DNA of 44,629 nt from a virus (IMGVR_UViG_2609460219_000007); one strand, 5' to 3'. Counted from the first letter of the stretch, positions 27,676 to 27,900 are shown. Made by a program: numbers and translations. Notes: generated from the sequence alone by a model not told the origin.

Positions 27676-27900
27676 ACTGTTCACCACTGTTCACCCTGTC
27701 ATAAATATCTTTTATATCAGTATATTATAGGGTGAACAGTTATTTATGAACTGTTCACTAAACTATTCACTGTTCACCTTTTTGATTATTTATCGATCTT
27801 TAAGGGTGAACAGTGGTGAACAGTCGGTGAATAGTTTTTGTGAAACTGTTCACCACTTAACATTTTGAATTGAAAGGGAAAATATAAAAAGGTGAACAGA
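27676..27900. repeat. Iteron array GGTGAACAG (about ten copies, both orientations): putative satellite replication origin
   Basis: Copies of GGTGAACAG/CTGTTCACC in an AT-rich segment immediately downstream of the primase-helicase gene. Confidence 0.7.

Follow-up and report, generated by a model that had tools for sequence, protein, structure and literature searches.

The stretch of viral DNA analysed here (IMGVR_UViG_2609460219_000007; 44,629 nucleotides (nt), referred to in its entirety as the window) carries a satellite element of the phage-inducible chromosomal island (PICI) type, inserted within the large-terminase gene (terL) of a helper prophage. Within this satellite an array of short repeats, or iterons (27677..27899), made up of ten copies of GGTGAACAG/CTGTTCACC at zero or one mismatch plus one weaker copy, follows the gene pri, whose product of 619 amino acids (aa), Pri-Rep (25804..27663, + strand), is a homologue of the alpha protein of P4 over residues 159-609. 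The first iteron begins 14 nt past the stop codon (27661-27663) of this open reading frame, and the array ends 52 nt ahead of the ATG (27952) of the next conserved gene. We consider it very probable that this array is the vegetative replication origin of the 10.7-kb satellite, and that the product of the gene immediately upstream recognises it.

The iteron array behind pri

The whole window was searched for GGTGAACAG with at most one mismatch allowed. The segment 27677-27899 held eight exact copies (- strand at 27677, 27687, 27770 and 27846; + strand at 27731, 27805, 27815 and 27891) and two copies with a single mismatch (27751, - strand, AGTGAACAG; 27826, + strand, GGTGAATAG), giving five copies on each strand, with an extra two-mismatch iteron at 27763 on the - strand. 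The window as a whole contained 24 matches at this threshold, 10 of which fell within the array, where shuffled sequences gave a mean of 8.9 and a maximum of 15 matches per window. Only 0.045 matches were expected by chance in 224 nt at the shuffle rate, so the cluster is not due to chance; hand arithmetic on the same rate put the Poisson probability of at least ten copies in 224 nt at about 1e-20. Adjacent tandem iterons were spaced by 10-11 nt, about one helical turn. The segment 27677-27900 was 32.6% GC and the 134 nt of DNA between the repeats 18.7% GC, compared with a median of 48.7% over 224-nt stretches of the window, of which only 2.8% were as AT-rich. These values are in full agreement with the sequence-only reading of this DNA, which had described about ten copies in both orientations within an AT-rich segment lying immediately 3' of the initiator gene.

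The array divides into two halves. The left half (27677..27778) comprises an inverted pair (27677, 27687), a 35-nt AT-rich spacer (spacer 1, 27696..27730; 20% GC), a direct iteron at 27731, and inverted iterons at 27751, 27763 (the weak copy) and 27770; the right half (27805..27899) comprises direct iterons at 27805, 27815 and 27826, an inverted iteron at 27846, a 36-nt AT-rich spacer (spacer 2, 27855..27890; 19% GC), and a direct iteron at 27891. A central AT-rich spacer (27779..27804; 19% GC) lies between the halves. Spacers 1 and 2 are each candidate DNA-unwinding regions: a counterpart of spacer 1, of similar length and in the same place, was seen in the relatives displayed (below), and spacer 2 corresponds to the AT-rich stretch between iterons of P4 ori. 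Compared with a near-identical element in strain A5, two 10-nt indels within the array (27676-27685 and 27805-27814) each amount to exactly one iteron, giving ten iterons here and eight in A5; the longer, 10-iteron form was present in nearly all of the sampled E. coli matches.

The sole exact copy of GGTGAACAG elsewhere in the window lies within pri (26384-26392), 31 nt from a one-mismatch copy in the opposite orientation (26353-26361). This intragenic pair was kept only in close E. coli relatives and was missing from more distant ones; it is probably due to chance. It was considered as a second cis site and rejected because it is absent from three relatives (L004, L010 and L011). A search of Rfam at gathering thresholds gave no match in or near the array.

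The Pri-Rep initiator and the cis sites of P4

Pri-Rep carries the Pfam domains D5_N, DUF5906 (a superfamily 3 (SF3) helicase) and Pox_D5, and shares 50% identity with P4 alpha over 451 residues (159-609). It matched phrog_864 ("DNA primase") at 1e-184; the score for TIGR01613 ("primase, P4 family") was 94.5 bits, under the 108.7-bit cut-off. The C-terminal residues 511-607 (27334..27624, + strand) form an origin-binding domain of winged-helix type and matched PDB 1KA8, the origin-binding domain of P4 alpha, at E 2.5e-24. The helicase core matched the "DNA primase" chain of PDB 7ola (E 8.8e-10), which we take to be a protein of a staphylococcal pathogenicity island (SaPI).

In alpha itself, a DnaG-type primase is followed by an SF3 helicase and, at the C-terminus, by a DNA-binding winged-helix domain (PMC2777425). 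The two proteins differ at the N-terminus, where Pri-Rep has, in place of P4 alpha's 319-aa DnaG-type primase domain, a domain of about 125 aa (approximately residues 1-125; 25804..26178, + strand). The first 158 residues of Pri-Rep gave no alignment to alpha and no sequence match in Pfam or PDB, and PDB sequences searched with a profile of the N-terminal domain yielded chance-level matches only (E 0.24 or worse). As modelled by AlphaFold2, this domain has a predicted Toprim/DnaG-like fold of doubtful catalytic status (predicted local distance difference test score, pLDDT, 77 with a 37-sequence alignment). The DnaG-type primase domain of P4 alpha carries an EGYATA motif, and no N-terminal domain of that kind with this motif was found in Pri-Rep. 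The neighbouring gene had at first been called a primase-helicase: the half of that name which concerns a D5_N/SF3 helicase with a P4-alpha-type origin-binding domain is established, whereas the primase half is unproven, the canonical catalytic residues having not been found, and the "primase" label is doubtful.

The repeats as well as the protein resemble those of P4. The P4 genome record (NC_001609) lists sixteen "ori type 1 repeats", six within ori (9310-9413) and ten within the cis-replication region, crr (4291-4590). They read TGTTCACC, mostly preceded by C, which is the reverse complement of GGTGAACAG; the 9-mer CTGTTCACC of the window is the P4 type-1 iteron (C)TGTTCACC, present in multiple copies and both orientations and accompanied, as in P4, by an initiator of its own that combines an SF3 helicase with an alpha-type C-terminal winged-helix domain for origin binding. 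In its right half the array runs collinear with the P4 ori cluster of type-1 repeats: the start-to-start spacings were 10/11/20/45 compared with 10/11/22/43 in P4 (NC_001609 9310-9396), and the identity was 68% over 127 aligned columns, spacers included. The left half resembles one 120-nt unit of crr, with identities of 59% and 56% to the two P4 units, and the left half and crr unit 1 share the motif CTTTTAT(A/T)TCAG, which in each case begins 14 nt past the iteron pair. Both systems have a block of iterons directly 3' of the initiator gene; in P4 it is crr, behind alpha. However, ori and crr are separated by about 4.5-5 kb in P4, which has two crr units, whereas the window has one crr-like and one ori-like unit that are contiguous, so that in place of two separate cis sites the element has a single 223-nt block. 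Tandem P4 type-2 repeats (CCACTTAAAG) formed no array here, and the only two isolated 8-of-10 matches both overlapped iterons. In gene content, too, the element is PICI-like rather than P4-like. A full-text literature search for TGTTCACC returned primer lists only.

We hold it possible, though somewhat doubtful, that ori and crr of P4 are naturally fused in this array, or that it preserves the ancestral state in which they had not yet been split. If true, a single lineage, and not independent inventions, would account for the replicon of P4 and for those of one allele class among Gram-negative PICIs. The same comparison raises the possibility that the array is solely a crr-like auxiliary site, enhancing or limiting replication by looping or handcuffing, with initiation occurring elsewhere in the satellite. 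In P4 the cluster directly 3' of alpha is indeed crr rather than ori, and the left half is similar to a crr unit; nevertheless, collinearity with P4 ori itself is seen in the right half, the element has no second iteron cluster (copies having been checked window-wide), its only other copies being those within pri that more distant relatives lack, and in the PICI EcCICFT073 a deletion of the equivalent region lowered plasmid maintenance (PMC6092414). We judge this alternative very unlikely, although it is the most credible of those considered.

The repeats could otherwise be operators for transcription from pri into the single-strand DNA-binding protein (SSB) gene and the late genes, bound by Pri-Rep or by another regulator. 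The array does fill the intergenic region ahead of the next operon, and plasmid iterons sometimes double as operators. Yet a promoter scan of 27500-28250 detected no sigma-70-like site, where shuffled sequences gave a mean of 1.7, and the repeats are downstream and not upstream of the initiator gene; moreover, RefSeq annotates the homologous P4 repeats as belonging to the origin and the cis-replication region, and Pri-Rep matches a P4 domain that was solved as an origin-binding domain. A purely operator function thus appears less credible again than an auxiliary one; a secondary regulatory role, in addition to that of an origin, is possible. The region also contains one weak terminator-like match on the - strand (28176-28190).

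Relatives, known PICI origins and the proposed mode of initiation

A scan of species-representative genomes yielded 73 loci encoding relatives of Pri-Rep, a subset of which was displayed together with EcCICFT073. At each displayed locus an array was formed by those 8-9-mers that recurred most often directly past the pri stop codon, and these arrays kept the orientation order of the window with similar spacings: an inverted pair, some 35-45 nt of spacer, one or two direct iterons followed by two or three inverted, a further two or three direct and a single inverted iteron, then about 44 nt and one or two direct iterons. The iteron sequence was clade-specific, with one version used throughout each array: GGTGAACA(G/C) in Klebsiella, Raoultella, Kluyvera and Citrobacter; GGTAGACA in E. 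ruysiae, K. georgiana and Enterobacter; GCGGACAG and GTGGACAG in Serratia; GGTGCACA in Proteus; GGTAGAGA in Symbiopectobacterium; and, in a weaker array, a GATGTATA-like iteron in Xenorhabdus.

The origin-binding domain contains a variable segment, at approximately residues 583-596 as counted on the 1KA8 alignment, which probably forms the beta-hairpin wing, going by the topology usual for winged helices. The segment KRKTKHGLRSNVTL pairs with iteron GGTGAACAG, and KRAKCTKGPDKGRVITNVLL pairs with GGTAGACAG. The latter combination is carried by the relative L011 despite a helicase region 91% identical to that of the window, closer than the GGTGAACA-type relatives (87-89%). If the somewhat doubtful reading of the array as fused or unsplit P4 ori and crr is true, iteron specificity across that lineage would be reprogrammed mainly via positions 3-5 and 7 of a GGTNNACAG-type iteron and via this one variable segment of the binding domain, probably the wing. 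The comparative set provides a ready experiment on initiator DNA specificity, in which the layout is fixed and the iteron varies in at least six ways, tracking one short protein segment; it also ties the PICI origin to the classical ori and crr of P4.

An exchange of the entire module was seen in E. coli EC42405 (L082, 8137-9760), where the backbone of the satellite is again inserted at this terL site but has a RepA/AAA_25 initiator and, at the position of the array, repeats of AAAGTGAGGA. What the two modules have in common is the N-terminal domain of about 125 aa alone (51% identity), and therefore replication modules seem to be exchanged as cassettes. This strain also bears on whether the repeats could instead be a packaging site, that is, cosB-like binding sites for the Nu1-like small terminase (DUF1441) of the satellite. 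The satellite does have its own DUF1441 terS gene, and small terminases of this kind bind repeated sites, as at lambda cosB. But the repeats follow the initiator and not terS: EC42405 keeps the DUF1441 terS while its repeats have changed with its initiator, which argues that they are not a terminase site, and P4 has the same iteron with no DUF1441 gene among its annotated products. Of the alternatives weighed, we regard a packaging site as the least likely.

The 10-iteron array with the same offsets recurred in a further relative (L002) and in a circular record (L081). A 451-nt query spanning the array matched 594 of 5426 complete E. coli genomes, and nearly all of the sampled matches spanned 450 nt. 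A close relative of the pri-ori module was found in vB_KppS-Ant, a 16.5-kb record labelled "induced prophage". The circular record (pZ1323HEC0475-3, NZ_CP148328.1) is a 10,790-bp "plasmid" within an E. coli assembly, and is a PICI of this family with the same ten iterons; it fits an episomal form, while replication is not proven thereby. This circle is without the small gene and the ssb gene that follow the array in the window.

The arrangement is that of known PICI origins. In the 2018 description of Gram-negative PICIs this origin organisation was treated as unique to PICIs, and a cloned pri-ori segment of EcCICFT073 supported plasmid maintenance only when both pri and ori were intact (PMC6092414). 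The EcCICFT073 array likewise lies immediately 3' of pri-rep, ahead of a small conserved gene and ssb, within the gene order DUF4222, pri, ori, small gene, ssb, and its iteron sets are placed in both orientations around AT-rich spacers (an inverted pair; a single direct copy; three inverted copies; two or three direct copies; a single inverted copy; one or two direct copies at the end). The iteron differs, being GGTAGACAG there and GGTGAACAG here. In the window the same features were found, namely 10-11 iterons in oppositely oriented groups 3' of pri-rep with spacers of 19-20% GC, which upholds the earlier description of the locus as a classical PICI ori arrangement, with iteron sets flanking AT-rich spacers as described and functionally tested for Gram-negative PICIs (PMC6092414). 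SaPIs and other Gram-positive PICIs similarly have the origin 3' of the initiator, short iterons to either side of an AT-rich segment and a matched specificity of initiator and iteron (PMC6092414); their iterons, set apart by description, are without sequence relationship to those here, and the host range and binding domain differ. The kind of origin is accordingly already known and tested in a relative, being of the Gram-negative PICI type with a P4 iteron and a P4-type binding domain, so its novelty is low, and the general picture of how such origins work is unchanged. What goes beyond the textbook is the fused ori-plus-crr layout, the series of iterons and binding domains, the Toprim-like domain apparently without catalytic residues, and the insertion site in a gpA-type terL; and a replication module has been identified for a satellite living in the large-terminase gene of its helper.

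Several points weigh against assigning the array as the origin recognised by Pri-Rep, or against parts of that assignment. The Pri-Rep tested experimentally is that of EcCICFT073, which is only 45% identical overall and 34% identical in the binding domain. The link of segment to iteron is not one-to-one, in that EcCICFT073 and L011 share GGTAGACAG and yet their variable segments differ. P4 requires two separate cis sites, ori and crr, and the block here would be a fused one. The circular record could represent an excised, non-replicating circle captured by the assembler. Finally, with regard to priming, Pri-Rep is without the primase domain of P4; the position of the Toprim Glu-Gly is, as placed by eye, occupied by Ala22-Gly23-Ser-Asp25, with the Ala invariant across relatives; and no DxD was found by eye after the third strand of the N-terminal domain. 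For these last three reasons self-priming by Pri-Rep is doubtful.

Autonomous replication of the element is our inference from homology, from the co-variation of iteron and binding domain, and from the circular 10.8-kb record found for a close relative; the binding, melting, helicase loading, primer source and firing proposed for this copy have the same standing. Once the satellite genes are switched on, Pri-Rep would be made and would bind through its C-terminal winged-helix domain to the 10-11 GGTGAACAG iterons, spaced by helical turns in oppositely oriented groups. Bound Pri-Rep may then assemble an SF3 helicase ring at one of the spacers of 19-20% GC, melt it, and unwind outward, the single strands presumably being coated by the SSB of the satellite, encoded beside the origin. 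Priming could be carried out by the Toprim-like N-terminal domain or, more likely, by the DnaG of the host, and the circle would be copied by host polymerase III.

The satellite, its insertion in terL and the host prophage

The element is a 10,748-nt insert (21819-32566) within the gpA-type terL of the helper prophage, with a 7-nt identity block, CTGGATG, at attL (21812..21818, + strand, inside the helper terL) and at attR (32560..32566, + strand). The insertion separates the 5' half of terL, encoding the GpA_ATPase domain (20829..21821, + strand), from the 3' half, encoding the GpA_nuclease domain (32564..33676, + strand); a TAG stop codon directly follows the core at the left junction, and an ATG lies within the core at the right junction. 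Joined together, the flanks aligned without a break to intact terL, at 100% identity in the listed genomes, and 614 records matched the reconstructed empty site with an identity of at least 99%. Most of this composite of prophage and satellite is present in about ten complete genomes. As part of the somewhat doubtful reading of the array as fused or unsplit ori and crr, firing before excision could also amplify the packaging region of the helper in place, since this copy lies inside terL.

Satellites embedded in the late genes of their helpers were described by Tommasini, Mageeney and Williams in 2023 (PMC10111431). The present element is like theirs in its orientation with the late operon, its own primase and origin, and its captured late genes, and the insertion into a late gene is likewise precise and in the same orientation. 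It differs in that its site separates the GpA_ATPase from the GpA_nuclease domain in a terL of the lambda-gpA type, whereas the A-gene sites in the text and supplements consulted (132, 245 and 246) all carry the Terminase_1 profile; neither "GpA" nor the accessions found here occurred in the portion of the supplementary text consulted, and for that reason the gpA-terL site may be unlisted among the sites of helper-embedded PICIs. The doubled TGTATTGC motif, given in PMC10111431 as standing at fixed distances from the attP centre, has no counterpart here, TGTATTGC being absent from the element; TATTGC/TATCGC-like motifs were seen about 100 nt from each junction.

The satellite spans 10.7 kb with almost all of its genes on the + strand, and encodes int, a helix-turn-helix (HTH) protein, Bro-N, DUF4222, pri, ssb, a protease-capsid fusion and terS; this int/HTH/Bro/pri/SSB/capsid/terS layout is that of a PICI, and agrees with the Gram-negative PICI pattern of int, an alpA-like HTH, pri-rep and rightward genes within 10-20 kb, tail and lysis genes being absent; the identification of the element as a satellite in the sequence-only reading therefore stands. 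The tyrosine integrase (21983..23223, + strand; the end coordinate was taken from the gene spacing of strain A5) has the domains Arm-DNA-bind_3 and Phage_integrase, and the HTH_17 match was weak (E 0.004). The DUF4222 gene (25508..25807, + strand), the stop codon of which overlaps the start of pri, always precedes pri in these elements. Directly 3' of the predicted origin are the conserved small gene (phrog_1231; 27952..28197, + strand) and the gene for the SSB of the satellite (28194..28616, + strand; Pfam SSB 3.5e-15, phrog_44). These are followed by a fusion gene for a ClpP-like prohead protease and major capsid protein (29246..31160, + strand) and by a small-terminase-like gene (DUF1441; 31362..31904, + strand) of the same family as the helper terS (20263-20820). 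The protease-capsid gene is of the same family as helper gene 35146-37365. Portal, large-terminase and tail genes are lacking in the satellite, which, since it has its own protease-capsid and terS genes and none of these others, lies between the classical and the capsid-forming PICIs.

The listing of open reading frames showed the integrase and the protease-capsid gene as broken, which raised the question of whether the array is the relic origin of a decaying, immobile element. The window holds 32 N bases, and in comparison with the element of strain A5 (L001) six of these are extra (22493, 23137, 24651, 30229, 31184 and 32458), the five other N bases within the element being plain substitutions. 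The integrase breaks at 22493 and 23137 and the protease-capsid gene appears split at 30229; in A5 both genes are annotated as intact. The breaks coincide with single extra N bases absent from A5, and hence the apparent frameshifts were rejected as artefacts. Over 11 kb the two elements were 99.7% identical, differing by two substitutions, one poly-A indel and the two 10-nt indels within the array, plus the N bases. In addition, eight of the ten iterons are exact, and the 10-iteron layout is shared with L002 and L081 and is kept at full length in nearly all of the sampled E. coli matches. These observations point to an intact element rather than a remnant, and we rank a relic origin below an operator function, though above a packaging site, in credibility.

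An 80-nt direct repeat with 95% identity is present in two intergenic regions, after ssb (28649-28728) and again between the capsid gene and terS (31186-31265), and contains a GC-rich hairpin. It had no Rfam match, and on either strand its fold was no better than those of shuffled sequences; it may be a regulatory site ahead of the late genes.

The host prophage encodes a Q-like antiterminator and lysis genes, and its RNAs comprise DicF, a sok antitoxin and two cspA-type thermoregulator leaders, located at 4774-4825 (- strand), 10827-11001, 14554-14946 and 18010-18426. Because DicF, sok and the cspA-type leaders are present, we classify it as a Qin-like lambdoid prophage.
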